DNA of 64,000 nucleotides from an uncultured Candidatus Saccharibacteria bacterium (GCA_964474825.1 CAYYWQ010000001.1:65420-129419); one strand, 5' to 3'. Shown: positions 2 through 61,830, counted from the stretch's first letter. Notes: generated by a model from the letters alone, not told the origin. Numbers and translations: made by a program.

Positions 2-24
2 AGATTAAAGATTTATGATTTAAG
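2..24. repeat. 23-mer AGATTAAAGATTTATGATTTAAG (copy 1), overlapping purM stop
   Basis: 22/23 identical to 1965-1987. Confidence 0.7.
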
Positions 25-1060
25 GTTTCCAATTTAAATTGCCATGGAATTTAACCTGCTTACTTCCTTTTGTTATTGTGCCAATTTCATAAGTATTAAT
101 ATTAAATTTTTGTAAATGGGCTATTGCTTTGGCAGCGAAAGATTTTTTAACAACCGCGGTAATACCGACTCCCATATTAAAAGTTCTAAGCATGTCCTGG
201 TCTTCTAGTTTACCGTAGTTTTTTAAGGTTTTAAATATGGGCAGAATTTTAATTTTTTCCAAATTAATTTCTGCGTTTAAATTTTGAGGCAATATTCTGT
301 TTAAGTTTTCTTTTATGCCGCCTCCGGTAATATGCGCTAAGCCGGTTAATTCAGAATTGCCGAATAGTCCTTTTAAGGAATTATAGTAGCAGCGATGCGG
401 CGTCAAAATGGTTTTTATAAAAGTTTGTCCGTCAACTTTTTCTTTTAAAATTTTTGGACTACCGGCCATAATTTTCCGGACTAAAGAATAACCGTTGGTA
501 TGAAGGCCGCTGGAAGCTAAAGCCAATACTACATCACCATCTTTAATTTTTGAACCGTCTATAATAGAATTCTTTTCTACTACTCCTACAATACTGGCAC
601 TTAAAATATAAGTCCCGGCTTCCACTACGCCAGGCTGTTCCGAAGTTTCTCCTCCGGTTAAAACGCAGCCGTTGTCTTTGCACGCTTTGGCAAGTGAGGA
701 AACAATTTTTACAACAACGTTTTTTTCTATTTTACCGCAAACTATGCAGTCTTGGACAGAAAGGGGAGTGGCGCCCATAACAATGGCGTCATTAATTAAA
801 TGGCCAACTAAGTCCTGGCAAATAGTTTCAACGCTATTGTTTTGCAGGGCAAGTTTTTGTTTGGTGCCGGGCTCCTCGGTTTTAAAAACCAAAACCGGGT
901 TTTTGTACCCGGGAAAAGAGCCGTCAAACAGCGTGGCAAAAGCGCCAACTTTGTTTAGCACTTTGGCGTTATTGGTCTTAAGCGCCTTAGCCATTTGCCG
1001 TTTGGAGTCATTGGCAACGTCTATATTTACTCCGGAAGTTTTGTAAGATAGTTTGGGCAT
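20..1060 (-). CDS. purM: Phosphoribosylformylglycinamidine cyclo-ligase (AIR synthetase)
   Basis: 346 aa; N-terminal SGVNIDVAN and TGGETSEQPG motifs typical of PurM; part of pur gene string. Confidence 0.88.
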   Translation of the reverse strand: MPKLSYKTSGVNIDVANDSKRQMAKALKTNNAKVLNKVGAFATLFDGSFPGYKNPVLVFKTEEPGTKQKLALQNNSVETICQDLVGHLINDAIVMGATPLSVQDCIVCGKIEKNVVVKIVSSLAKACKDNGCVLTGGETSEQPGVVEAGTYILSASIVGVVEKNSIIDGSKIKDGDVVLALASSGLHTNGYSLVRKIMAGSPKILKEKVDGQTFIKTILTPHRCYYNSLKGLFGNSELTGLAHITGGGIKENLNRILPQNLNAEINLEKIKILPIFKTLKNYGKLEDQDMLRTFNMGVGITAVVKKSFAAKAIAHLQKFNINTYEIGTITKGSKQVKFHGNLNWKP

Positions 1061-4900: not shown

Positions 4901-6319
4901 TTAAAATAGGACACCAGGGTCTTTTGCTTCGGCGTAAACTGGTTCTTTGACTGTGGCTTTCATTTCTTTTAAATCTATTGGGTACTCACCGGTAAAACAG
5001 GATGTGCAGAGTTGGTCTTCTGGAACGCCAATGGAGTTAATTAAACCAGGAAGAGAAAGATAGTAAAGCGAAGTTGCTCCTAAAAATTCCCTAATTTGTT
5101 CAACGGTTTTGTGGGAACCAATTAGTTTTTCTTGCTTTGGAGTATCGATTCCATAAAAGTCCGGGTACTTAACAGGAGGGGAGCTAACTAGAAAATGCAC
5201 TTCTTTGGCGCCGGCTTCAAAAATCATTTTAACTATTTGCCTACTGGTAGTGCCCCGTACAATAGAGTCGTCTATAATTACCACTCGTTTGTCTTTTAAT
5301 ACTTCGGTTAAAGGTGTGAGTTTTAATTTAACACCCAAGTCCCGGCTGTGCTGTTCGGGCTGAATAAAGGTGCGGTGAATGTAACGGTTTTTTACCAAAG
5401 CCATTTCCATTGGGATTTTTGAAGCTTTGCTGTAGCCGCTGGCAACAGGTACGGCTGTTTCCGGAACCGGCACTATAATGTCGGCTTCTATGGGGCATTC
5501 TTCAAAAAGTTTGGTTCCGCAATTGTGGCGGACCTGGTAAACAGATTGTCCGGAAATGTTGCTGTCGGGTCTGGCAAAATAAACAAATTCAAAAACATCC
5601 ACTTTAGTTTTTGGCTGTTCTATTTGCACGCTTTCAATGCCGGCTTCTGTAACAACAACCATTTCTCCTGGGTTTACTTCGCGTTCAAAGGTGGCGCCAA
5701 CTGTGTGGAAGGCACAAGTTTCAGAAGCAAAAACTACGGCGTCATCTACCTTTCCCATAGCCAGAGGACGAATGCCAAAGGTGTCGCGAACCGCAACTAA
5801 AGTGTCCTTAGTCATTACAGTTAAGCAAAACGCTCCGGTAAACAGCGGGTAGGATTTAAGCACTGCATTTTTTAAACTTTCTCCGTGCTCTATATAATAG
5901 GAAATAGCCTTGGCCATAAGTTCACTGTCGTTACTGTCTTCTGTTGGGATGTCTTTGGCCTCTAAAAATTCTTTAAGTGCTGTAACGGACGGCAAATTAC
6001 CGTTGTGCGCCAAAGCCACCAAGCTATCTTTAGTAATTACCGGTTGCGCGTGTTTTAAATGCGATCCTTCCGAAGTGGAGTAACGGTTGTGGCCAATAGC
6101 AATATGACCTTTTAAATTTTGGATAGTTTCTTCATTATAAACATGTGTAACCAGCCCCATGTTTTTGTAGCAGTCTATTCGGTTTCCATCTGCTGTAGCT
6201 ATTCCGGAAGATTCCTGGCCTCTGTGCTGTAATGCAAAAAGACCATAGAAAGTCAGTCTGCTGACATCTAGATTTTTTCCATAAATTCCAAACACCGCGC
6301 ATTTATGTTTTAGGTCCAT
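4901..6319 (-). CDS. purF: Amidophosphoribosyltransferase
   Basis: 472 aa; CAVFGIYG N-terminal nucleophile region, PRTase motif VVIIDDSIVRGTT, C-terminal Cys cluster. Confidence 0.9.
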   Translation of the reverse strand: MDLKHKCAVFGIYGKNLDVSRLTFYGLFALQHRGQESSGIATADGNRIDCYKNMGLVTHVYNEETIQNLKGHIAIGHNRYSTSEGSHLKHAQPVITKDSLVALAHNGNLPSVTALKEFLEAKDIPTEDSNDSELMAKAISYYIEHGESLKNAVLKSYPLFTGAFCLTVMTKDTLVAVRDTFGIRPLAMGKVDDAVVFASETCAFHTVGATFEREVNPGEMVVVTEAGIESVQIEQPKTKVDVFEFVYFARPDSNISGQSVYQVRHNCGTKLFEECPIEADIIVPVPETAVPVASGYSKASKIPMEMALVKNRYIHRTFIQPEQHSRDLGVKLKLTPLTEVLKDKRVVIIDDSIVRGTTSRQIVKMIFEAGAKEVHFLVSSPPVKYPDFYGIDTPKQEKLIGSHKTVEQIREFLGATSLYYLSLPGLINSIGVPEDQLCTSCFTGEYPIDLKEMKATVKEPVYAEAKDPGVLF

Positions 6320-6528: not shown

Positions 6529-7299
6529 TTATTTAAAATAATTAATTGCGTTTTTAAATATTTGTAAACCCGGGCCGTTTTTTGGGAAAGGCAAACCCTT
6601 TCTAATCAACTTTTGCTTAATTAACGGCCAGTTTGGTAATTGGGTAAAGAACATGGCGCGTTCTGGGTGGGGCATTATTCCTAGTACTCTTCCATTATAA
6701 CCTGTTATGGCCGCAATATCTAACATTGAGCCGTTGGGGTTGGGGTTTAGGTTTTGGTAATCGCAAATTTCACCTTTTGTGTAGTTGGCAACTATTGCTC
6801 GGTCTTTTTTAAGTTGTTTGATAGTTTTATCATCAGCAAAATATTTTCCTTCGCCATGAGCAATAGGTAACATCAACTTTTTAATTCCGGAAAGCCAAGG
6901 GCTGTGGCCGGAAATTTTTAAATCTACCCAGCGGTCGGTGTAGCGCGCGTTTGTATTTACAGTTAATGCTCCTGGAAGCAGACCGGTGTTGGTAAGAATT
7001 TGGAAGCCGTTGCAAATTCCAATAACCAGTTTGTCTTTGGTTGCGAATTCGTACAAATAATTTTTTAAATGGTTTTTTAGTTTGTTGCCATAAGCTTTGC
7101 CGCTGCCTGTGTCATCACCATAGCTAAAGCCTCCGGGTATGGCCAGGATTTGATATTTCATTAGCTGTTTTTTGTTTGCCACTAAATCGTTAACATGAAC
7201 CATATCGGCCTTGCCTCCAACTAATTCAAAAGCCGCAGCAGTTTCCTGTTCGCAGTTTAGGCCGTAACCAGCTAATACTATTACTTTTGGTTGCTTCAT
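6529..7299 (-). CDS. purQ: Phosphoribosylformylglycinamidine synthase, glutaminase subunit
   Basis: 256 aa; class-I GATase motifs (IPGGFSYGD, catalytic Cys in GICNGFQ, HPE). Confidence 0.88.
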   Translation of the reverse strand: MKQPKVIVLAGYGLNCEQETAAAFELVGGKADMVHVNDLVANKKQLMKYQILAIPGGFSYGDDTGSGKAYGNKLKNHLKNYLYEFATKDKLVIGICNGFQILTNTGLLPGALTVNTNARYTDRWVDLKISGHSPWLSGIKKLMLPIAHGEGKYFADDKTIKQLKKDRAIVANYTKGEICDYQNLNPNPNGSMLDIAAITGYNGRVLGIMPHPERAMFFTQLPNWPLIKQKLIRKGLPFPKNGPGLQIFKNAINYFK

Positions 7300-7395
7300 A
7301 AAGTTTTCTGTCTTTACGAACTACGAATCGGTACTAATATACGAATTCTAGATGTTAGCATTAGTATATTCGTAACAAATTAGTAGTTAGTAAAG

Positions 7396-10368
7396 CTAGT
7401 AGTCCTTGAATTTTTCTTTGTATGCTTTTAATGCGTCTGGAATTTTCAAATCAACAATTTTTTTGTTGTTCCTGTCGGCAATTATCAATTTATCATTTTT
7501 ACTAACCGTTCCAATTTTGGCAAAAATATTTCCGGACATTGCGGATTCAAAAGCTTCGGCGTTTTTTGGGTCAACGGTTACTAAGATTCTTCCCTGGCTT
7601 TCGGAAAATAGTGCTTGGTAGTTTTCTTCCCACTTGCCTGGCAAGTCAGTAAAATTAATTTCGCCCCCAAGTCCGCCACCAGCCAAAGTTTTGATAAGCG
7701 CTGTAATTAAGCCACCACGGGTAATGGATATAGAAGAGGCGATTAAATCTTTTTGTATTGCGTTAAATACAGATTTATATAGTCGGTAGTTTTCTGCGGC
7801 GTCTACAGAAGGAACAGTTACTTCTAGTTGTGAGTCGTTAGTTTCTAGTTGCATGTTATTGTATTCGCTACCGCTAAGTTCATTGTTTGTTTTTCCTAAA
7901 ATATAAATAACATCGCCCGGCATTTTGGCGTCTAGGGATACTGTTTTGTTTACATCCGGCACAACTCCTATAGCTGAAATTAAAAGTGTCGGGGGAATGG
8001 AAATTTTTATGCTTTTGCCGTCTTTGTCAAACCCTTTAAAGTCGTTATACATACTGTCTTTGCCGGAAATAAAAGGGGTGCCAAAAGTGGTGGCGTAGTC
8101 AAAACAGGCACGCGCCGCTTCCTTAAGTTGCCAAAGCCTTTGCGGGTCTTCTGGGCTGCACCAGCAAAAGTTGTCTAATAGAGCCAGGTAGTCCACGTCT
8201 GCGCCCGCGACAACTGCGTTTCTAATTGCGGTGTCTATTGAGGCAGCTGCCATTTTGTAAGGGTCCAGTTCGCTGTAGGAAGGATACATTCCATAAGAAA
8301 GTATCACGCCTTTTTTGGAGGTAAGAATTGGACGGGTAACAGTAGCGTCTGCGTTTATTCTTCCGCGCCCTTGAAGTGGTTTTAAAACAGAGCCAGCCTG
8401 AACTTCATGGTCGTATTGGGTGTTAACAAAGTCAGTGGAGGTAATGTTCAGGCGGCTTAACAAATTCAAGATTCTAGATTCTAGATTCAAGATTTTTCTT
8501 TGGGGAACTGTTACATGTTTCGTGTTGCGTGTTACATGTTTCGTGTTTTGCTGCTTAATCGGCCTGCCGTTATGCAAAAATTCCATTTCTAAATCTAGGA
8601 CTGTTTGGTTTTTAAATTTAACCACGCATTTTCCGTCTTTGGTAAACTTGCCAATTGTTGTAGATTCCACCCCACGTTTCTTCATCAGCGCAAAAAATTC
8701 TTTCCATTTTTTTGGTGGTACTGCAAAAATCATTCTTTCCTGGGACTCTGAAATCCAAATTTGCCATGGGGCAAGGCCGGGGTATTTTAAAGGAACTTTA
8801 TCGAGCTCAACAACGCATCCGCCGGATTGCGTAGCCATTTCGCCAACAGCACTGGAAAGTCCGCCGGCGCCACAATCGGTTATAGAAGAATACAAGCCTT
8901 TGTCCCGTGCTTCTTTTACAATTGCGTCGCTAAGTTTTTTTTGAGTAATTGGGTCACCAATTTGTACGGCTGTGGCTGGGCTGTGGGAGTCTAAAGTCTC
9001 AGAAGAAAAAGTGGCGCCGTGAATTCCGTCTGCCCCAACTCGGCCTCCGGCTACAACTATTAAATCTCCAGCTTTGGTTTGTTTTACCCAGGAAGGCTTT
9101 CCTTTTATAGAGCGGGGGATTAGGCCAACAGTTCCGGCAAACACCAAAGGCTTTCCTTGGTAGCGGGAGTCAAAATACAAAAAGCCAGAGTTAGTAGGAA
9201 TGCCGCTTTGGTTGCCGCCAGCGTTAATGCCGGAAATTACGCCTTCAAATATTTTACGCGCGGAAAGCATTGGCCGCGTTAATTCTTTGTCCCTATACAA
9301 AACAGTCTTGTCCTGCGGATCTGCAAAGCAAAAACCAAATGTGTTAATAATCGGTTTTGCTCCTAAACCAAAACCCAAGCAGTCCCGGTTAACGCCAACT
9401 ATGCCGGTAATGGCTCCGCCAAAAGGGTCCAGTGCTGAAGGTGTGTTATGAGTTTCTACTTTGTGGGTAATAATATTGTCTTTGTCAAAAACTATACCAC
9501 CGGCATTGTCTGTAAACACGGAAACACAAAAATCTTTTCGTCCTTTTTGTTTGCGTATGGCCTGCGTTGCGCCTTTTATAAAAGTTTTGTAAAGACCTTG
9601 CTGTAAATTATCAATCGGATCTGCAAAAATTGTGTGCTTGCAGTGTTCGCTCCAGGTTTGGGCCAGGGTTTCTATTTCTACGTCGGTTGGCTTACGGCCG
9701 AGCTTGTTAAAGTAATTGCGAATAACTAATAAATAATCCAAACTTAAAGATAGGGGACCGCGGCGGGTACCGTCACTATCTGCAATTCCCAACTTCCCCA
9801 ATTTCGCCAGTTCATCATCTTTAACATTTAAATCCACCCTGCTTACTTTAGTGGAAGCTGTTAGTTTTACTTTTGGTGCGACTAAATCCATTCCGCTGTC
9901 CTGCTTAAAATTAGCAAAAGATTTTAAAGAAGCGCGCTGAATGAGTGGGTTGTATAAACTGTTTTTTATTTTTTCAATTTCGATACGTGTCACGCCGCCT
10001 GAAATAAAAAACACCTGGGACGTGTAAACGTGTTGTCCAGATGTGAATTTCACTCTTGCTCCATCTTCCAAAGTTTCTTTGGCCGTGCTGCCAACGTTGT
10101 CTGTAACTCCGGGTAGGTAGCCTATTTCAATTGCGTAATCAAATTTGCGTGGTGCGTCTAGAGTTACAGAAGCTTTCTCTATAATTGGGTTGGCGAGAAG
10201 CGCCTGAGCCTTTTCTATTTGCTGTTTGTTTAGCTTGGTGTCTATGGTATAACAGTCCGCTACCCACACTGCTCCCAATTTGCTTTTGAGTCCCAAGCTT
10301 TCGAAATATTTTTTCTTAGCCTGGCCTCTGGTGTCGGGGATTGTGGGCTGAATATATAGACGGAGCAT
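7396..10368 (-). CDS. purL: Phosphoribosylformylglycinamidine synthase with N-terminal PurS-like domain(s) fused (PurS-PurL)
   Basis: 990 aa; residues ~1-80 resemble PurS (…LLANPIIEKASV); a second possible PurS-like segment ~aa 95-165; PurL N-linker TDVEIETLAQTWSEHCKH; FGAM synthetase halves (ILNLLSRLNITS…QYDHEVQ); internal 7-aa tandem repeat insertion NTKHVTR-NTKHVT. Confidence 0.85.
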   Translation of the reverse strand: MLRLYIQPTIPDTRGQAKKKYFESLGLKSKLGAVWVADCYTIDTKLNKQQIEKAQALLANPIIEKASVTLDAPRKFDYAIEIGYLPGVTDNVGSTAKETLEDGARVKFTSGQHVYTSQVFFISGGVTRIEIEKIKNSLYNPLIQRASLKSFANFKQDSGMDLVAPKVKLTASTKVSRVDLNVKDDELAKLGKLGIADSDGTRRGPLSLSLDYLLVIRNYFNKLGRKPTDVEIETLAQTWSEHCKHTIFADPIDNLQQGLYKTFIKGATQAIRKQKGRKDFCVSVFTDNAGGIVFDKDNIITHKVETHNTPSALDPFGGAITGIVGVNRDCLGFGLGAKPIINTFGFCFADPQDKTVLYRDKELTRPMLSARKIFEGVISGINAGGNQSGIPTNSGFLYFDSRYQGKPLVFAGTVGLIPRSIKGKPSWVKQTKAGDLIVVAGGRVGADGIHGATFSSETLDSHSPATAVQIGDPITQKKLSDAIVKEARDKGLYSSITDCGAGGLSSAVGEMATQSGGCVVELDKVPLKYPGLAPWQIWISESQERMIFAVPPKKWKEFFALMKKRGVESTTIGKFTKDGKCVVKFKNQTVLDLEMEFLHNGRPIKQQNTKHVTRNTKHVTVPQRKILNLESRILNLLSRLNITSTDFVNTQYDHEVQAGSVLKPLQGRGRINADATVTRPILTSKKGVILSYGMYPSYSELDPYKMAAASIDTAIRNAVVAGADVDYLALLDNFCWCSPEDPQRLWQLKEAARACFDYATTFGTPFISGKDSMYNDFKGFDKDGKSIKISIPPTLLISAIGVVPDVNKTVSLDAKMPGDVIYILGKTNNELSGSEYNNMQLETNDSQLEVTVPSVDAAENYRLYKSVFNAIQKDLIASSISITRGGLITALIKTLAGGGLGGEINFTDLPGKWEENYQALFSESQGRILVTVDPKNAEAFESAMSGNIFAKIGTVSKNDKLIIADRNNKKIVDLKIPDALKAYKEKFKDY
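8464..8491. repeat. Heptanucleotide tandem array (ATTCAAG/ATTCTAG x4) inside purL
   Basis: Read directly; followed at 8510-8547 by a 21-nt-period direct repeat gttacatgtttcgtgtt(gcgt). Confidence 0.8.
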
Positions 10369-10499
10369 TATTAGGTGTTAGCTATTAGCTTTTAGGTGTT
10401 AGGAAGGGTAGAAAATAAAAATATCTTCCAAAAATGAGGGGTGGAAGATGAGGTTGATTTTGCTAGTTTCTGCCAATTTCTCAGCGCGTCTGTTACCCG

Positions 10500-23356: not shown

Positions 23357-23384
23357 TTCAAATTAAAGGAACTATTTCGATAGT
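23357..23384 (+). terminator. Rho-independent terminator AGGAACTAT-TTCG-ATAGTTCCT + T6
   Basis: Perfect 9-bp stem, tetraloop, T-run; directly followed by extended -10 TGgTATAAT (23386-23394). Confidence 0.75.
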
Positions 23385-23385
23385 T

Positions 23386-23394
23386 CCTTTTTTT
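23386..23394 (+). promoter_or_regulatory. Extended -10 promoter element TGgTATAAT for the pilin gene string
   Basis: Consensus extended -10, 42 nt upstream of ATG 23436. Confidence 0.5.
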
Positions 23395-23435
23395 GTGGTA
23401 TAATATAGGTCAAATAGGAAACTTTTGAAAGAAAA

Positions 23436-25253
23436 ATGCCAGTAAAAATCATGTCTAAAAATACGGGATTTACTCTAATTGAAGTCATTGTGACTTTGGC
23501 AATTTTTGCGCTGCTTTTGACTACGGCTTTAAGCGTATCTTCCGCATTAACTCAGTCAGTAAAAGCTTCCCGCCAAAAAACTATTATTGCTTCTTTGGCC
23601 GACAATTATATGGAAATAATGCGCAATATGCCTTACAGCCAAATTGGCACTGTGCATGGTAACCCGGTTGGGACTTTGGCGGATTGCAACGGCACGCCGC
23701 CCGCTTGTCCGGGTGCTACGCAAACTACCGTAGAAGGCCAGCTCTATAAAATTTTCTATGAAGTTACGTACATAGACGACCCGGCAGACGCGCTTGCCAC
23801 TACAGACGTTGCGCCGGCAGATTATAAGCAGGTTAAACTAACAATTCTAAACACCCAAACGGGCGGTTTTACTAATTTTGTAACAACTGTGGTGCCAAAG
23901 GGTTTGGAAAACACCAATAACGCCGGAGCGCTTTCCATTAACGTAATTGATTATTTGGGACAGGCTGTGCCTGGAGCTATTGTTACAATACAATCACCAC
24001 CTACGAGTCCTACTATGAACCTGTCCCGCACCAGCGACTCCAGCGGAAATTGGATTGAAGTTGGTTTACCTGCCGGGGTGAACAGTTACCGCGTAACCGT
24101 AACCAAGGGCGGGTATTCCACAGACCTAACTTACCCCAGCACTGTTTCAAACCCCAACCCTGTAAACCCTGACGCGACTGTTATTAATGGCCAGGCCACG
24201 CCCATAACTTTTGCTATAGACTCGTTGGCAAATTTAACGGTTAACACCGTGGACCAGTTTTGCGCCCCTATTAACGGAGTTAACGTGAACATTACAGGAG
24301 CTAAGCCAGTCGGCACTAACCCAAGTGTTTATAAATTCAACCAAAATTTTACTTCGTCGGGTGGAGCCGTGGCTTTAAACAGTGCTGAGTGGGATACCTA
24401 TACGCCCACACTGCTTACCGGGCAAACTTATGTAATTGCCGGTACGTCGCCAATACAAAAAATTGATGTCCTTCCCACTACCTCCCAAACTTTTACCATG
24501 GTGCTAAACGCTTCTACAACCGGCAACACTTTGCTGGCCATAGTAAAAGATGCGGCAACGGGAGCGGCTTTGGAAGGGGCTACTGTAACGCTTAGCGGCC
24601 CGAGTTATCCGGCCAATGCGCTTATCACCGGAGGCAGTGTGTGGGTGGAGACAGATTGGAGCCATGGCGCGGGGCAGGCCATGTTTAACGACGGGGACAC
24701 TTTAAAATATTGGACCGATGACGGGAATATAAACAACACCAGTCCCAGCGGACAAATCCAGCTCAGGAAAACTGGCAGCAATTATTCTCCCGCCGGCTGG
24801 CTGGAATCTTCCACTTACGACACGGGGACCAGCGCTACCCAATTTACAAATATTACCTGGCAGCCGCTTTCTCAGAATGCCAATACAGTTTTAAAATTTC
24901 AGCTAGCTTCCAATAATGACAACACCACCTGGGACTACGTCGGTCCCGACGGTACAGCCGCAACTTACTATACGGTTTCCGGGACTTCCATGAGTGCTAA
25001 TTTGAACAGTAAACGTTATATTCGCTACAAAGCTTTTTTGTCTACAACCAACAGTTCTTTTACGCCGGTACTTACTTCGCTTAACATTAATTACGTTTCG
25101 GGCTGCAGGACTCCTGGCCAAGTGTTGTTTAATAACAGTTTGCCCCAGGGCAGTTACACTTTAACCGTTTCCATGACCGGCTATTCCACACAAACGTTTA
25201 ATAACCTAAATATTAGCGGGAACCAAACGCTTACAGTGCAAATGGCACCATGA
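23436..25253 (+). CDS. Large type IV pilin-like / pseudopilin protein
   Basis: 605 aa; prepilin N-terminus MSKNTGFTLIEVIVTLAIFALLL (G^FTLIE cleavage/methylation motif) then beta-rich Thr/Asn-rich domain. Confidence 0.7.
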   Translation: MPVKIMSKNTGFTLIEVIVTLAIFALLLTTALSVSSALTQSVKASRQKTIIASLADNYMEIMRNMPYSQIGTVHGNPVGTLADCNGTPPACPGATQTTVEGQLYKIFYEVTYIDDPADALATTDVAPADYKQVKLTILNTQTGGFTNFVTTVVPKGLENTNNAGALSINVIDYLGQAVPGAIVTIQSPPTSPTMNLSRTSDSSGNWIEVGLPAGVNSYRVTVTKGGYSTDLTYPSTVSNPNPVNPDATVINGQATPITFAIDSLANLTVNTVDQFCAPINGVNVNITGAKPVGTNPSVYKFNQNFTSSGGAVALNSAEWDTYTPTLLTGQTYVIAGTSPIQKIDVLPTTSQTFTMVLNASTTGNTLLAIVKDAATGAALEGATVTLSGPSYPANALITGGSVWVETDWSHGAGQAMFNDGDTLKYWTDDGNINNTSPSGQIQLRKTGSNYSPAGWLESSTYDTGTSATQFTNITWQPLSQNANTVLKFQLASNNDNTTWDYVGPDGTAATYYTVSGTSMSANLNSKRYIRYKAFLSTTNSSFTPVLTSLNINYVSGCRTPGQVLFNNSLPQGSYTLTVSMTGYSTQTFNNLNISGNQTLTVQMAP

Positions 25254-25882
25254 AAAAAAATCTAAATTCTAAATTCGAAATTCGAAATTCCGGTTTTACC
25301 TTGGTGGAAATGCTGGTGGCAATTTTTTCTTTTACTTTAATTTCCGCCGGTATGATTGGTTTAATTTCAGTAATGTTTACCACTTACAAGCAGCAGGGTG
25401 GACTTCTTTCCGACCAGGACCAGGCGCGCAAGGTGGCTTTTAATATTATGGCGGAATTGCGTAACTGCCAAACATCTTCTTTAGGTTCTTACGCCATAGA
25501 AACGGCGCAAGACCAGCAGTTAACTTTTTATACCAATGTAGACAGCGACAATGCCATTGAAAAAATTCGTTACTTTGTACAAACTTCCCAGTTGTGGAAG
25601 GGTGTTACCAAGCTTAGCGGCGGCAGCTATAATCCGGCAAACGAAGTAAAAACCATGGTCCAGAATAATTTAGCCAACGGGGCCGCCCCATTGTTTTATT
25701 ATTATGACGGCAGTTACACCGGCACCCAAGCAGCGCTGACCCAGCCTGTGTCAGTGGCTAACATAAAGTTTGTGGTACTCAAGCTCATGGTTTACAATAA
25801 AGCGGGAGTGAAAAACACCAACACTTATACTGTAACGGCCAGCGGCGCTGTGCGTAATTTAAAAACAAACCTTGGACAATGA
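25250..25882 (+). CDS. Type IV pilin-like protein
   Basis: 210 aa; leader MKKNLNSKFEIRNS then GFTLVEMLVAIFSF prepilin motif; 4-nt start/stop overlap with upstream gene. Confidence 0.7.
   Translation: MKKNLNSKFEIRNSGFTLVEMLVAIFSFTLISAGMIGLISVMFTTYKQQGGLLSDQDQARKVAFNIMAELRNCQTSSLGSYAIETAQDQQLTFYTNVDSDNAIEKIRYFVQTSQLWKGVTKLSGGSYNPANEVKTMVQNNLANGAAPLFYYYDGSYTGTQAALTQPVSVANIKFVVLKLMVYNKAGVKNTNTYTVTASGAVRNLKTNLGQ
25261..25288. repeat. Heptanucleotide tandem array TCTAAAT x2 TCGAAAT x2 at codons 5-13 of pilin gene 25250
   Basis: Read directly; preceded by A8 homopolymer at 25253-25260. Confidence 0.8.
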
Positions 25883-27417
25883 GAAAAATTCTGAATTCTA
25901 AATTCAAAATTCTAAATTCTAAACTGGGCCAGCGCGGGTCCATAATGATTTATAACATCCTGATTATTTTTATTTTCAGCACGGTTATGGTGGGTATTTT
26001 AAGCGTGGCCACAAGCCAGCTAAGGCTTCTTCGCAGCAGTATTAGCCGCGAGTCGTCTTTTAATATTGCCGAGGCGGGGATTAATTATTACATTTGGCAT
26101 TTAGCCCATTTTCAAAGTGATTACGCGGACGGCACTGGCCAGACCGGCTGTAACCCCTGCGGCCCTTATGTCCATAATTACACTGACACGGACAACGCCA
26201 CAGTTATTGGAAAATTTAGTTTAACCATAACGCCGCCTTTGCTCGGTTCCACGGTGGTAACAATTAAATCCACCGGTTATACCTTGGCTGACCCAGGCAA
26301 CAAGCGCACAATTACCGCGCAATATGGGATTCCTAGTTTGGCCCAGTATTCTTTTTTAAGCAATGCCGATGCTTGGATTGGTTCAACAGAAGCAGTGCAC
26401 GGGCAGTTCCGTAATAACGGAGGAGTGCGTTTTGACGGCAGCGGCGACTCCTGGATTTCTTCGGCCAAAAATAATTTGCCCCCCGGGCCGGGCTACCAAT
26501 GCAGCCCGCTTTTTGGCTGTTGTCCCGCGCTGACCAAGCCGGGAATATGGGGAGCGGCCGGAGCTTCTACCCAGGCATTTTGGAAAATGGCCCAGCCTAA
26601 TGTAAACTTTGCGGGAATAACGGGGGATTTAAATACTATTAAAGCTAACGCCCAAGCCAGCGGTATTGATTTGGCACCTTCTAACAGCCAGGGCTACTCT
26701 TTGGTGTTTAAGTCCGACGGCACTTTCGACACTTATAAAGTGACGTCTTTAAAATCCAACCCCACCGGTTACAGTACTAATTGCACGTATAACAGCGCGG
26801 CCTGCGCCGCGGCCTGTAACTCAACATGCACGAATTCCATTCAGTGCGAAGCGCGTAACGACAAGCTGGACTATAACGCGCGGACTTTTCTTAATAACCG
26901 CGCTATTCCTGCCAACGGCATTATTTTTGTGGAAGACAATGCCTGGGTGGAAGGTACGGTTAAAGGACGGGCTTTGGTTGTGGCCGCGCGGTTGGGTTCT
27001 TCGCTTGCCGGTATGCCAAATATTTTTATTCCTAACAATATTCTATATAATGACCTTACCGCTAACAGTAACGACATTTTAGGATTGCTTTCACAGAAAG
27101 ATATTATTATTACTTACCTGGCACCAAGCACTTTAACTATAGACGCGGCTATGATAGCCCAAAACGGTGTGGTTAATTTTTTTGACTATAGCGCGGGTTG
27201 CACTACAACCGCTGCGCAAAAAACCACTTTAAATTTGTTTGGCTCGTTGGCCAGTTATGGCGTTTGGACCTGGACCTGGACCTGTGGTAATGGCGTTTAC
27301 TCCGGATATTTAAACACCAACACAACTTACGACGGCCGGCTGCTTTACTATCCTCCGCCAAGTTTTCCGGTAGACAGCGCAGCGGGATACCAGCAACTTA
27401 ACTGGAAGAGTAACTGA
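25879..27417 (+). CDS. PilX-like (TfpX N-terminal domain) minor pilin / pilus-tip protein
   Basis: 512 aa; MIYNILIIFIFSTVMVGILSVATSQLRLLRSSISRE…AEAGINYY resembles PilX N-terminal; 4-nt overlap with upstream gene. Confidence 0.5.
   Translation: MRKILNSKFKILNSKLGQRGSIMIYNILIIFIFSTVMVGILSVATSQLRLLRSSISRESSFNIAEAGINYYIWHLAHFQSDYADGTGQTGCNPCGPYVHNYTDTDNATVIGKFSLTITPPLLGSTVVTIKSTGYTLADPGNKRTITAQYGIPSLAQYSFLSNADAWIGSTEAVHGQFRNNGGVRFDGSGDSWISSAKNNLPPGPGYQCSPLFGCCPALTKPGIWGAAGASTQAFWKMAQPNVNFAGITGDLNTIKANAQASGIDLAPSNSQGYSLVFKSDGTFDTYKVTSLKSNPTGYSTNCTYNSAACAAACNSTCTNSIQCEARNDKLDYNARTFLNNRAIPANGIIFVEDNAWVEGTVKGRALVVAARLGSSLAGMPNIFIPNNILYNDLTANSNDILGLLSQKDIIITYLAPSTLTIDAAMIAQNGVVNFFDYSAGCTTTAAQKTTLNLFGSLASYGVWTWTWTCGNGVYSGYLNTNTTYDGRLLYYPPPSFPVDSAAGYQQLNWKSN
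25890..25924. repeat. Heptanucleotide tandem array TCTGAAT-TCTAAAT-TCAAAAT-TCTAAAT-TCTAAAC at codons 4-15 of PilX-like gene
   Basis: Read directly. Confidence 0.8.
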
Positions 27418-27522: not shown

Positions 27523-27909
27523 ATGAAAAATATTTTTATCAAAATAAGTTTGATTGTGGCTATGGCACTATTTCCTTTGTCTGCTTTGGCAATGATATAC
27601 GTGCCGGCAGGTATGGTGCCCAACACGCCGCCGCTGCAGCCACACTCGCCTTTGGTGACGCCCAATATCTCCCAAAATGTCACTACAGCCACTTCATCTG
27701 AGTCCACAGGGGAGTCTTTGCAGCCAACGCCAATCATTATAGAAGATGTTATGGCGGGTAGTGAGGAACAGGCCAGGAGCCCTCAAGAGGATGATGACGA
27801 AGAAAATTCCAAAAGTTTTTGGAGCGGCGTTTGGCTGTGGACCCTGCTTCTTTTGGCCGGAGCCAGCTTTGGTTACTGGATGATAGTAAAACGAAATGGA
27901 CGCGACTAG
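27523..27909 (+). CDS. Small secreted protein with C-terminal TM anchor
   Basis: 128 aa; signal peptide MKNIFIKISLIVAMALFPLSALA; Pro/Thr/Ser-rich middle; acidic stretch then TM. Confidence 0.4.
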   Translation: MKNIFIKISLIVAMALFPLSALAMIYVPAGMVPNTPPLQPHSPLVTPNISQNVTTATSSESTGESLQPTPIIIEDVMAGSEEQARSPQEDDDEENSKSFWSGVWLWTLLLLAGASFGYWMIVKRNGRD

Positions 27910-29092
27910 CCTTACCAAACAAAATACTTGTCTTTATTGCGGCAACAACCCAACGCCGCATTTTTTTACTTGGTATTTTGAGAGCTTGGACATTTTGTTT
28001 AGGCCGCTGAGGCGGCTAATTTCATTTAACCCGGTTTCTTTGCTTATTAAAACCTGGCTAAAGAATAATAATTTTGGTTGGTACGTGGCTAAATTTTTAT
28101 TAGGTGCTGGCTTCATTCAAAAACAGCCCGACATTTTAAAATGCAAAGTCAGACGCGCGCAGGTTTTATGGGAAGAAGCGCAAAAGCGCGGCATTGAATT
28201 TTACGGACTGAAACTTTTGGGGAAAAATTTAGATATGTATATGGCCCGGGGAAGGGCAAATAAATTATTTATAGACGGACTGCCCAGGCCAAAAAGCTAC
28301 AACGGCAGCATGCTGGAAGACTTGGACGACAAAATGGTGCTTAAACAAAAACTTGGGGACGCGGGACTGCCTGTGCCAAAAGGCGGGAGTGTGTTTAGTT
28401 ATTCATCTGCCGCAAAGATTTTTAAGAGAATCAATAAGCCTGTTATAGTTAAACCGCGCAGCGGCAGCAGGGGAAGACACACCACAACCTATATATATAG
28501 TGAAGCCGAGTTAAAACAGGCTTTTAAAGTGGCAAAACAACTTTGCAGCTGGGTGGTTGTGGAAGAGCAATTATTTGGTCCCGTCTACCGCGCCACTATA
28601 ATAAACGAACATTTGGCAGGGGTTTTGCGGGGAGATTCGCCTGCTGTTACTGGTGATGGTGTTGCTAGAATTATGGATTTGATAAATAAAAAAAATCATT
28701 TAACTCACGCAGGTGTTAAAGATATAGTGCCGGACAGCGGAATGGAATTATTTTTACAAAGACAAAACCTAACATTAGCATCAGTCCTCCCAAAAGGACA
28801 AACCATTAGTCTAACGGAAAAAATTGGCGTAAATTATGGAGGCAGTTCTTCAGAAGATTTTGAAATTTGCCACCAAGACAATAAAGAATTGTTTTTGCAG
28901 GCCGCCAAAGTTTTAGGAGACCCAATAGTTGGTTTTGATTTTATTATTGCCGACATTACCAAGTCCTGGAAAGAACAACGCTGCGGGTTTATAGAAGCCA
29001 ATTCTTTACCGTTCATTAACCTACATCACGACCCACTCCTTGGCACCCCGCGTAACGTCGCGGCATTGGTTTGGGATATGATGCAGATGTAG
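27896..29092 (+). CDS. ATP-grasp family ligase (RimK/cyanophycin-synthetase-like)
   Basis: 398 aa; DKMVLKQKLGDAGLPVP…PVIVKPRSGSRGRHTT…FIEANSLP ATP-grasp signature; N-terminal hydrophobic extension; 14-nt overlap with upstream ORF (start may be downstream). Confidence 0.6.
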   Translation: MDATSLTKQNTCLYCGNNPTPHFFTWYFESLDILFRPLRRLISFNPVSLLIKTWLKNNNFGWYVAKFLLGAGFIQKQPDILKCKVRRAQVLWEEAQKRGIEFYGLKLLGKNLDMYMARGRANKLFIDGLPRPKSYNGSMLEDLDDKMVLKQKLGDAGLPVPKGGSVFSYSSAAKIFKRINKPVIVKPRSGSRGRHTTTYIYSEAELKQAFKVAKQLCSWVVVEEQLFGPVYRATIINEHLAGVLRGDSPAVTGDGVARIMDLINKKNHLTHAGVKDIVPDSGMELFLQRQNLTLASVLPKGQTISLTEKIGVNYGGSSSEDFEICHQDNKELFLQAAKVLGDPIVGFDFIIADITKSWKEQRCGFIEANSLPFINLHHDPLLGTPRNVAALVWDMMQM

Positions 29093-31552: not shown

Positions 31553-32023
31553 ATGAAACAAAAAGGATTTACTTTAATTGAACTGCTTGTAGTAATTTCC
31601 ATAATAGGGTTACTTTCTTCAGTTTTATTTGTTTCCTTGAATAATGCCAGAGTAAAGGCCAGGGATGCAAAAAGGAAGTCCGAAATCAAGCAGATTGTTA
31701 CCGGATTGGTAATGTATTACAATGCCCATAATTCCTACCCGGCTAATACCTATAATGGTGCCTGTGGTACGGCCTTAAACGGCACTGACCTTATTTCTCA
31801 GGGGTTAATTAATGACGGAATAATAAAAAAAATACCATTGCCGCCTTCCAATTCAGGTCAATGCGGGGATTATTATTATTCCGGCACTTGGAATAATGCC
31901 CAAAGTTTGGCCATTATGACTAAACTGGAAAATGCTGATGTCGGGTGCAAGCCTTTTACCGGAGACCCAGACTGGTATATTTCCGGCTCCTACTGTAATG
32001 GTATTTATATTGTCACACAATAA
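31553..32023 (+). CDS. Type IV major pilin (PilA-like)
   Basis: 156 aa; MKQKGFTLIELLVVISIIGLLSSV prepilin motif; C-terminal Cys pair. Confidence 0.8.
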   Translation: MKQKGFTLIELLVVISIIGLLSSVLFVSLNNARVKARDAKRKSEIKQIVTGLVMYYNAHNSYPANTYNGACGTALNGTDLISQGLINDGIIKKIPLPPSNSGQCGDYYYSGTWNNAQSLAIMTKLENADVGCKPFTGDPDWYISGSYCNGIYIVTQ

Positions 32024-61287: not shown

Positions 61288-61830
61288 ATGAAAAATAAAA
61301 AAACCACGGGATTTACATTGCTTGAGGTCCTTATAGTTTTGGCAATTATAGGGGTTTTAGCGTCTGTGGTTATGCTTGCGTTAAAAAGGAGCCGGCTTAA
61401 AGCTGCTAATGCTAAAATTCAAACCACAGTGCACCAGTTTCAAATAGCTTCGGAGTTGTATTTGGCCGACCATGGTGGTCAATATGTAAGAGTGTCTTCT
61501 TCTAATATTCTTCCAGGATGGGATATGAGTTCCCAGGGAAATTTTTTGCCAGAACTTAAGCCTTATATGGCCCAGGAGATTGAGCATCCAAACAACATAG
61601 ACAGTTATTTATATATTAATTTTCAAGACGTAGACGCTAATCCTTACAACGCCATTTCGGAAGCCTTTAGAAATGGGTGTTCATCAAAAGTGAAAGCAGT
61701 GCTCGTTTATGATTTTATTGGGGATGATCCCAATAACCCACAAACTACAGTAATAGATAGCTCCTGGCCGGTGTGTCATTCCTCTTACGGTGGGTCACCC
61801 TTAGATTTTAATTGCCTATGCCTTAATTAG
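61288..61830 (+). CDS. Type IV pilin
   Basis: 180 aa; MKNKKTTGFTLLEVLIVLAIIGVLASVV prepilin motif; C-terminal Cys pairs. Confidence 0.75.
   Translation: MKNKKTTGFTLLEVLIVLAIIGVLASVVMLALKRSRLKAANAKIQTTVHQFQIASELYLADHGGQYVRVSSSNILPGWDMSSQGNFLPELKPYMAQEIEHPNNIDSYLYINFQDVDANPYNAISEAFRNGCSSKVKAVLVYDFIGDDPNNPQTTVIDSSWPVCHSSYGGSPLDFNCLCLN

Follow-up and report, generated by a model that had tools for sequence, protein, structure and literature searches.

In Neisseria the opa (CTCTT) and pilC (poly-G) tracts are long, perfect, polymorphic within strains and specific to surface genes, and slippage in them switches translation of the mature protein. Haemophilus influenzae carries heptanucleotide simple sequence repeats (SSRs) in the hmw1A and hmw2A promoters, (TGAAAGA)n, in a TonB-dependent receptor gene, (AACAACC)n, and inside hmw1A, (AATTTTG)14 (PMC2651432). 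Another group of heptanucleotide direct repeats lies next to start codons: TAACTGA in Beggiatoaceae (PMC4679880), the heptamers, or short tandemly repeated repetitive (STRR) sequences, of Nostoc and Calothrix, and GGGAATC in Xanthomonas (PMC4692102; bioRxiv 10.1101/2022.06.06.494920). Heptameric SSRs are over-represented in many bacteria, and polymerase slippage has been proposed as the cause (PMC4692102). In Borg elements, tandem repeats create new disordered protein segments (PMC9879509). We describe here two heptanucleotide tracts in the first codons of two adjacent pilus genes, gene A and gene B, in a 64,000-nucleotide stretch of DNA (the window) from an uncultured Candidatus Saccharibacteria bacterium (GCA_964474825.1 CAYYWQ010000001.1:65420-129419).

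Bacteria of the candidate phyla radiation (CPR) probably use type IV pili to attach and to take up DNA and depend on them for both, and real phase variation of their minor pilins, if true, would be a notable finding. A preliminary description had proposed just this for the two tracts. We find that the tracts are real and belong to a lineage-wide class of heptanucleotide SSRs for which gene starts are hot spots. The copies in the window are probably decayed relics of in-frame slippage, lodged in leaders under little constraint, and not operating switches. The features on which the argument turns are these:

25250 to 25882, plus strand: gene A, a 210-aa prepilin-type minor pilin, PilV/PulJ-like (open reading frame (ORF) list; N_methyl and TIGR02532 matches).
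25253 to 25260, plus strand: a run of eight A (A8) in codons 2-4 of gene A (sequence).
25261 to 25288, plus strand: array A, (TCTAAAT)2(TCGAAAT)2, reading LNSKFEIRN inside a 15-aa leader (Tandem Repeats Finder (TRF); pattern matches).
25292 to 25309, plus strand: the gene A cleavage motif G^FTLVE, with ^ marking the cleavage site (translation; kept in orthologs).
25879 to 27417, plus strand: gene B, a 512-aa PilX_N-type pilus protein (ORF list; domain of the homologs).
25890 to 25924, plus strand: array B, TCTGAAT TCTAAAT TCAAAAT TCTAAAT TCTAAAC, inside MRKILNSKFKILNSKL, then QRGS^IMIYNIL (TRF).

Both gene starts are built as had been described. In gene A the ATG (25250-25252) and the A8 run are followed by TCTAAAT at 25261-25267 and 25268-25274, TCGAAAT at 25275-25281 and 25282-25288, and then TCC GGT TTT ACC, which gives ..NSG^FTLVE and an N-terminus of MKKNLNSKFEIRNSG^FTLVEM. 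Gene B opens with ATG AGA AAA AT and continues with TCTGAAT (25890-25896), TCTAAAT (25897-25903), TCAAAAT (25904-25910), TCTAAAT (25911-25917) and TCTAAAC (25918-25924), translating to MRKILNSKFKILNSKLGQRGSIMIYNIL. Array A spans codons 4-13 of its gene and array B codons 4-15. TRF reports a period of 7 at both starts, with 3.9 copies and a score of 47 at 25264-25290 and 5.4 copies and a score of 62 at 25886-25923. Perfect period-7 repetition extends over at most 20 nt (2.9 units) in array A and 17 nt (2.4 units) in array B, where neighbouring units are never identical. As expected of a 7-nt unit, simulated gain or loss of one unit at either tract shifts the frame, and translation then stops at codon 10-28.

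The tracts carry signs of having been read through for a long time. Repetition of the consensus unit TCTAAAT brings a TAA into frame once every three units, and it is precisely this unit that differs in the two genes, reading TCGAAAT in gene A and TCAAAAT in gene B. That the stop-creating unit is mutated in both indicates long-term translation, which would favour just such substitutions. The peptide LNSKF is indeed common to the two leaders, both of which are basic. With the first ~41 nt aligned ATG to ATG (offset 0, the same register), the two starts share 27 of 30 bases, so the reported likeness over about 30 nt holds; the longest exact run, however, is 13 nt, which is short for the recombination between gene starts that had been thought possible. 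The A8 run, proposed as an additional slippage site, turns out to be ordinary: the window has 13 A/T runs of exactly 8, this one included, and none of 9 or more.

Gene A is of prepilin type. Its NSG^FTLVEMLVAIF fits the type IV pattern (Gly, then F-T-L-x-E and a hydrophobic helix), it scores 17.7 bits against TIGR02532, above the 16.3-bit cut-off, and 20.4 bits (E=3.8e-4) against PF07963, slightly below the cut-off of 21.2, and its 158 homologs at E <= 0.001 have a conserved mature part. The G^FTL motif attributed to both proteins is present in gene A only. Gene B lacks it and reads LGQRGS^IMIYNILIIFIF, without G^F, without Glu at +5 and with no N_methyl match; the window copy has no Pfam match, and its homologs carry PF14341 PilX_N or bear the name PilX N-terminal domain protein. 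Exact-protein look-ups with the window copies of genes A and B gave no matches. By the names that homologs bear, the window belongs to Candidatus Doudnabacteria (Patescibacteria/CPR). Nor are the leaders unusually long, as had been supposed. The 15 aa of gene A compare with a median of 16 aa among its orthologs (interquartile range 13-20, n=113). Leader length ranges from 4 to 62 aa among gene A orthologs and from about 6 to 46 aa for gene B, with the mature parts conserved, and many ortholog leaders are rich in K, N and S with a 7-aa period.

To place the tracts in their lineage we compared related loci, 28 from genomes and 62 from metagenomes; as these were ascertained by way of the pilin operon, arrays near start codons are over-represented among them. 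Arrays of at least 3.5 copies in the related genome loci favour a period of 7 (37 arrays, with 11, 17 and 5 for periods 8, 9 and 10). In 390 kb of the Doudnabacteria-like clade there are 67 arrays, or about one per 6 kb; more distant Patescibacteria have 5 in 291 kb, a density roughly tenfold lower. Median copy number is 4.35. The 64 non-redundant arrays use 42 distinct units and so point to no single protein-binding motif; this diversity rules out a single-regulator model like that of the omega-repressor heptads. Subject to the ascertainment just given, 32 of 68 arrays (47%) fall in the zone from -40 to +60 around start codons, which makes up 9.6% of the sequence, and 22 of 68 are intergenic, though only 9% of the sequence is non-coding. 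Among close-clade gene A orthologs, 21 of 43 (~49%) have a period-7 array at the 5' end, where background density would predict ~3%.

The arrays are not confined to pilus genes. ATP-grasp orthologs of the window gene 27896..29092 (in loci L003, L005, L007, L008, L010, L013, L097 and L098) have in-frame array insertions at two fixed loop sites, with a unit that differs per species; the window copy, 27896-29092, is without an array. The product of this gene, encoded downstream of the minor-pilin operon, is a cyanophycin synthetase-related stand-alone ATP-grasp enzyme. Only 7 of the 45 window genes have a Shine-Dalgarno-like motif (GGAG, GAGG or AGGA at -22..-4), and initiation in this organism seems, to judge from these counts, to be largely Shine-Dalgarno-independent.

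Comparison of relatives shows how fast the arrays change. The preliminary description had asked whether repeat number is fixed in orthologs: it is not, and both units and their numbers differ. Perfect tracts occur at the gene A start in L008, with 5.3 copies of AAATTCC giving MEIPNSKFQIPNSNRG^FTL, in L010, with 5.1 copies of AAATTTC, and in L029, the closest metagenome relative at 75% identity, with 4.6 copies of AATTTTC. The closest long contig, L095, is 74% identical to the window in gene A and 79% in gene B. Its gene A has the same layout made of other units, ATG-A8-(GTTAAAA)2(GTGGAAA)2; its gene B has a plain leader, and the heptamer arrays there lie in a 115-nt spacer directly before the ATG. 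Across 3.5 kb L097 and L098 share about 88.5% identity. Their gene B leader arrays are of equal length with all four units changed alike (ATCTTAA in one, ATTTCCA in the other), which is, as the two sequences read, concerted turnover of units. The array in the ATP-grasp loop has been replaced between them, and just past the gene B stop is a clean 7-nt indel, (AGTAATT)2 against one copy. Proteins at least 90% identical have leaders that are unrelated or differ by in-frame insertions, and unrelated leaders at this identity mean that the 5' end changes, by slippage and replacement, faster than the remainder of the gene. Comparison of loci paired at 99.7-100% identity gave no informative heptamer differences, the 100% pairs probably being the same underlying assemblies. 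The spacer between genes A and B has inverted repeats in L015 (6625-6720), where they are two heptamer arrays inverted, and in L008 (6634-6745); these repeats could form a hairpin. The L095 contig also has intergenic 9-nt tandem repeats containing TTGACA, TAATTGACA in 4.6 copies, ATTGACATA in 4.1 copies and TTATGTCAA in 3.1 copies (reverse complement), at 7286-7328, 7899-7935 and 7952-7980, flanking a small minus-strand gene.

Through all this change the reading frame is kept. An in-frame gene A start is present in 28 of 28 genome loci, three of them through GTG or TTG, and an in-frame ATG in all 51 metagenome loci with a recognisable motif. In ~80 gene A orthologs, and in those gene B cases that were examined, no allele had been put out of frame by a heptamer tract; all of these are consensus assemblies, which hide minority alleles. 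Several seemingly truncated gene calls were considered as OFF alleles and rejected. P0087 (= L004) starts with GTG; P0284 (L099) and P0275 (L100) have in-frame ATGs and owe their truncation to the gene caller's choice of start; P0105 (L093) starts at a contig edge; and in P0091 and P0094 the interruption is due to a small mobile element rather than to heptamer slippage, a ~100-nt element being present in L091 and L092. The only candidate OFF allele is that of L092, in which the ATG frame stops inside the inserted element and a change from T7 to T8 would restore the mature frame. In L034 the inserted element supplies a new start, leaving the old leader array non-coding, and at 16 units this array is the longest seen, which suggests that ORF constraint may limit the length of coding arrays.

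This element, absent from the window, resembles a miniature inverted-repeat transposable element (MITE) and sits exactly at the prepilin cleavage-site codons of relatives' pilin genes:

L091 725-828; L092 149-256; L012 5900-6007; L034 2290-2397; L037 3948-4055; L007 4003-4110: MITE-like element of ~100 nt.

Its layout is GGNTTTACC / CAGCACCACTTTTT ... AAAAGTGGTGCTG / GGTTTAC, with perfect 13-nt terminal inverted repeats and a duplicated target that is the Gly-Phe-Thr codons. The right end reads in frame as ...K(S/T)GAG^FT and probably accounts for the many ortholog leaders that end in KSGAG; the left end reads in another frame as GVYPAPLF..., a peptide found in several long leaders. A second mini-element, a GC-rich palindrome of ~30 nt (about CTTCGCCAAGGCNTCGGAGGGCAAG), lies inside pilin-leader heptamer arrays (L030 2557-2640; L099 1400-1480; P0121, P0029 and P0229) and is read in frames that differ by lineage, as PSFAKASEGKQ, HLRQGFGGQA or ILRQAQDRFS. 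We take it to resemble the small dispersed repeats of cyanobacterial genomes. Further GC-rich palindromes occur in L033 and in L043/L014.

The window itself shows the same class of array away from the pilins. A period-7 scan gave 13 rows, where Markov-1 shuffles gave a mean of 1.1 (maximum 5), so the enrichment is not due to chance. TRF found five period-7 arrays besides A and B, and by unit the window arrays divide into five of A[AG]ATT[CT] type and two others. Those outside genes A and B are:

1 to 28, no strand assigned: array at the window edge, overlapping the stop codon of gene 20..1060 on the minus strand (TRF).
1965 to 1990, no strand assigned: intergenic array immediately 5' of the start codon (1957, minus strand) of the purE-like gene (TRF).
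8464 to 8494 and 8516 to 8548, minus strand: two arrays inside the purL-like gene 7396..10368, in frame, ..NTKHVTRNTKHVT..RKILNLESRILNLLSRL.. (TRF; translation).
10371 to 10403, minus strand: array, TTAGGTG-type on the plus strand, 3 nt before the purL ATG, which is without a Shine-Dalgarno motif (TRF).

The purL-like gene 7396..10368, on the minus strand, has Pfam AIRS, AIRS_C and PurS matches with a PurS-like N-terminal segment, and alignment to Thermus PurL (3viu) shows that its two arrays encode part of an inter-domain linker. They cannot be called a clean insertion, as the Thermus alignment shows a variable linker of similar length. Arrays 1-28 and 1965-1990, both classed as intergenic and 2 kb apart, are near-identical and contain ..AAGATTTATGATTTAAG.. 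on the plus strand; they resemble the arrays lying across the gene A start codon in L015 (5984-6012) and L001 (~5950-5990). The 14-mer TCTAAATTCTAAAT has 18 matches in the window, with 13.4 expected, and shows no dispersal outside the arrays themselves, which speaks against an uptake sequence or a family of binding sites. Scans of the window for Rfam families and tRNAs gave no matches, and a promoter and terminator scan of the arrays gave no convincing site, only one 9-of-12 match on the opposite strand.

Genes A and B follow a longer gene, with which they form a minor-pilin operon joined by ATGA overlaps, each start overlapping the preceding stop:

23436 to 25253, plus strand: 5' gene of the three-gene minor-pilin operon, 605 aa (Pfam N_methyl and CarboxypepD_reg; NCBIfam GspI/PilV-like N-terminus).

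Upstream of it are a promoter-like site (23377-23404) and a terminator-like site (23365-23390), and its leader is short and repeat-free, MPVKIMSKNTG^FTLIEV. Prepilin-type genes at 31553-32023 and 61288-61830 likewise have short repeat-free leaders, MKQKG^FTLIEL and MKNKKTTG^FTLL, so heptamer leaders are not general to the pilins of this genome; pilins elsewhere in the window have plain leaders of 5-8 aa.

The picture that we think probable is one in which replication slippage in 7-nt steps creates and turns over arrays in genomes of the Doudnabacteria type. Arrays would last where constraint is lowest, in start-codon spacers, in the linkers and surface loops of enzymes and, most of all, in the N-terminal leaders of pilus proteins, where the gene A leader would be removed by prepilin peptidase and the gene B leader would be a short basic stretch ahead of a membrane anchor. 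Within ORFs only in-frame, stop-free outcomes would survive. Both tracts are translated as leaders and have gathered point substitutions, including those that removed the in-frame TAA, and slippage in them, at 2-3 perfect units, is now expected to be rare. A change of 7 nt in either direction would truncate the protein at codon 10-28 and, given the ATGA overlap, would probably uncouple the downstream gene too, but nothing shows that this truncation is used as a switch. The tracts are thus more likely to be tolerated products of slippage, making variable N-terminal leaders, than on/off switches. Several points weigh against this account. The gene A 5' end is far hotter than ordinary non-coding DNA, and its excess of arrays could reflect selection that retains them there. 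The concerted turnover between L097 and L098 implies that slippage is still active in the lineage, and in the relatives whose tracts hold five perfect units frameshifted subpopulations may well arise. Our census of ON and OFF alleles rests on consensus sequences, which hide minority variants. Nor does the account explain how three units could be gained at once in an essential ORF without a frameshifted intermediate.

The reading originally proposed, that the tracts are contingency loci at which slippage by 7 nt, or by 1 nt in the A8 run, reversibly switches both minor pilins and hence the pilus within a population, is unlikely. Its architecture is partly there: the repeats are real heptanucleotide SSRs in the first codons, the unit is not a multiple of 3, and ortholog tracts vary in sequence and number, turn over in concert and in some relatives consist of five perfect units, all in keeping with 7-nt slippage over evolutionary time. 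The opa and pilC repeats of Neisseria, in the region coding for the signal peptide, offer one precedent. The phase-variable heptanucleotide tracts of H. influenzae offer another, but these have about 7-38 perfect units (PMC2651432), against the interrupted tracts of at most 2.9 and 2.4 units in the window, with substitutions exactly where TAA would be in frame. The same class of array is found in purL, at the purL and purE starts, in the ATP-grasp enzyme and between genes, and so is not specific to surface proteins; the A8 run is commonplace, the apparent truncations have other origins, and the consensus sequences of 28 genome and 51 metagenome loci hold no heptamer-caused OFF allele. Somewhat easier to credit, though still doubtful, is a role at the level of RNA or DNA, in which start-proximal arrays would adjust translation initiation or be bound by a regulator where Shine-Dalgarno sites are sparse; they might serve, for instance, as unstructured, A/U-rich landing sites or as binding sites of S1/Csp type. 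Roles of this kind have been proposed for the TAACTGA repeats of Beggiatoaceae (PMC4679880) and the heptamers of Nostoc (bioRxiv 10.1101/2022.06.06.494920), where like positions and rare Shine-Dalgarno sites are reported. The crowding of arrays around start codons, the arrays abutting the purL and purE starts, neither of which has a Shine-Dalgarno motif, the scarcity of such motifs among the window genes, the L095 arrays just upstream of the gene B ATG and the frequency of arrays at gene A starts would all fit. The diversity of units, however, speaks against one sequence-specific binding factor, the folding energies of array-bearing starts are indistinguishable from those of dinucleotide shuffles (z -0.44 to +0.54), many arrays lie deep within ORFs, and ascertainment around the pilin operon inflates the start-codon share.

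Selection on the peptide, in which processing of the prepilin or its insertion into the membrane would require a basic, periodic leader rich in K, N, S, F and I (LNSKF..) and the repeat in the DNA would be incidental, would account for the basic leaders with their shared LNSKF and for the K/N/S-rich, 7-aa-periodic leaders of many orthologs. We consider it very improbable. It would lead one to expect synonymous divergence within the arrays to equal that of their flanks and the peptide to be conserved, and the opposite is observed. Leaders are unrelated even between proteins at least 90% identical and vary in length between 4 and 62 aa, the window's other pilins manage with plain ones, and the periodicity is exact in the DNA, in the perfect units of L008, L010 and L029, and extends to non-coding DNA and enzymes. 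A last possibility, about as doubtful as a role in RNA or DNA, is that Doudnabacteria keep an active heptamer-array system, selected at the 5' ends of pilus genes, that tunes initiation or yields frameshifted, pilus-less subpopulations, and of which the window tracts are a somewhat decayed instance. Such a system would be marked by the density of about one array per 6 kb, the typical 4-5 units, the turnover of whole arrays, their concentration at start codons and the few Shine-Dalgarno sites. If it were true, pilus-less subpopulations would amount to bet-hedging in a pilus-dependent episymbiont.

If the window tracts are decayed slippage relics, as we favour, they carry a caution, as a frame-shifting repeat at a gene start need not be a contingency locus. 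The evidence points to 7-nt slippage as a major source of sequence change in this lineage, shaping N-terminal leaders, enzyme loops and the surroundings of start codons. The relatives with perfect 5-unit tracts (L008, L010 and L029) are those in which switching is directly testable in reads.

Set beside the known systems, the tracts resemble Neisseria opa and pilC in that the unit length is not divisible by 3 and the repeat falls among the codons for the cleaved leader of a protein of the surface or pilus, but differ in that they are degenerate and that the same class of repeat also occurs in housekeeping genes. Like the H. influenzae SSRs, they place 7-nt units in or beside genes for surface proteins, where a change in unit number alters frame or expression; there, however, about 7-38 perfect units vary between isolates and frameshifted alleles occur, whereas here we find 2-3 perfect units and no out-of-frame orthologs (PMC2651432). 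Borg repeats are similar in evolving fast, arising independently, being fixed in frame and adding low-complexity peptide; the arrays described here are short, with 4-5 units, and only some net changes in a 7-nt unit keep the frame (PMC9879509). In form the arrays also resemble the heptamers of Beggiatoaceae, cyanobacteria and Xanthomonas, which are likewise dispersed 7-nt arrays of 2-6 units, mostly within a few nucleotides of Shine-Dalgarno-poor start codons, some overlapping ORF ends or lying in frame in tolerant regions of proteins, which vary in length and sequence among close relatives and for which an origin by slippage has been proposed. As comparable start-proximal heptamers are already described in Beggiatoaceae and cyanobacteria, the kind of repeat is not itself new. 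Those genomes have one or a few dominant units, whereas the lineage studied here has 42 units in 64 arrays, and many of its arrays lie in translated sequence, namely the leaders of pilins and the loops of enzymes. The Beggiatoaceae and cyanobacterial heptamers, moreover, belong to a gammaproteobacterium or a cyanobacterium with a large genome, and our findings extend this poorly understood class to a small-genome CPR lineage.

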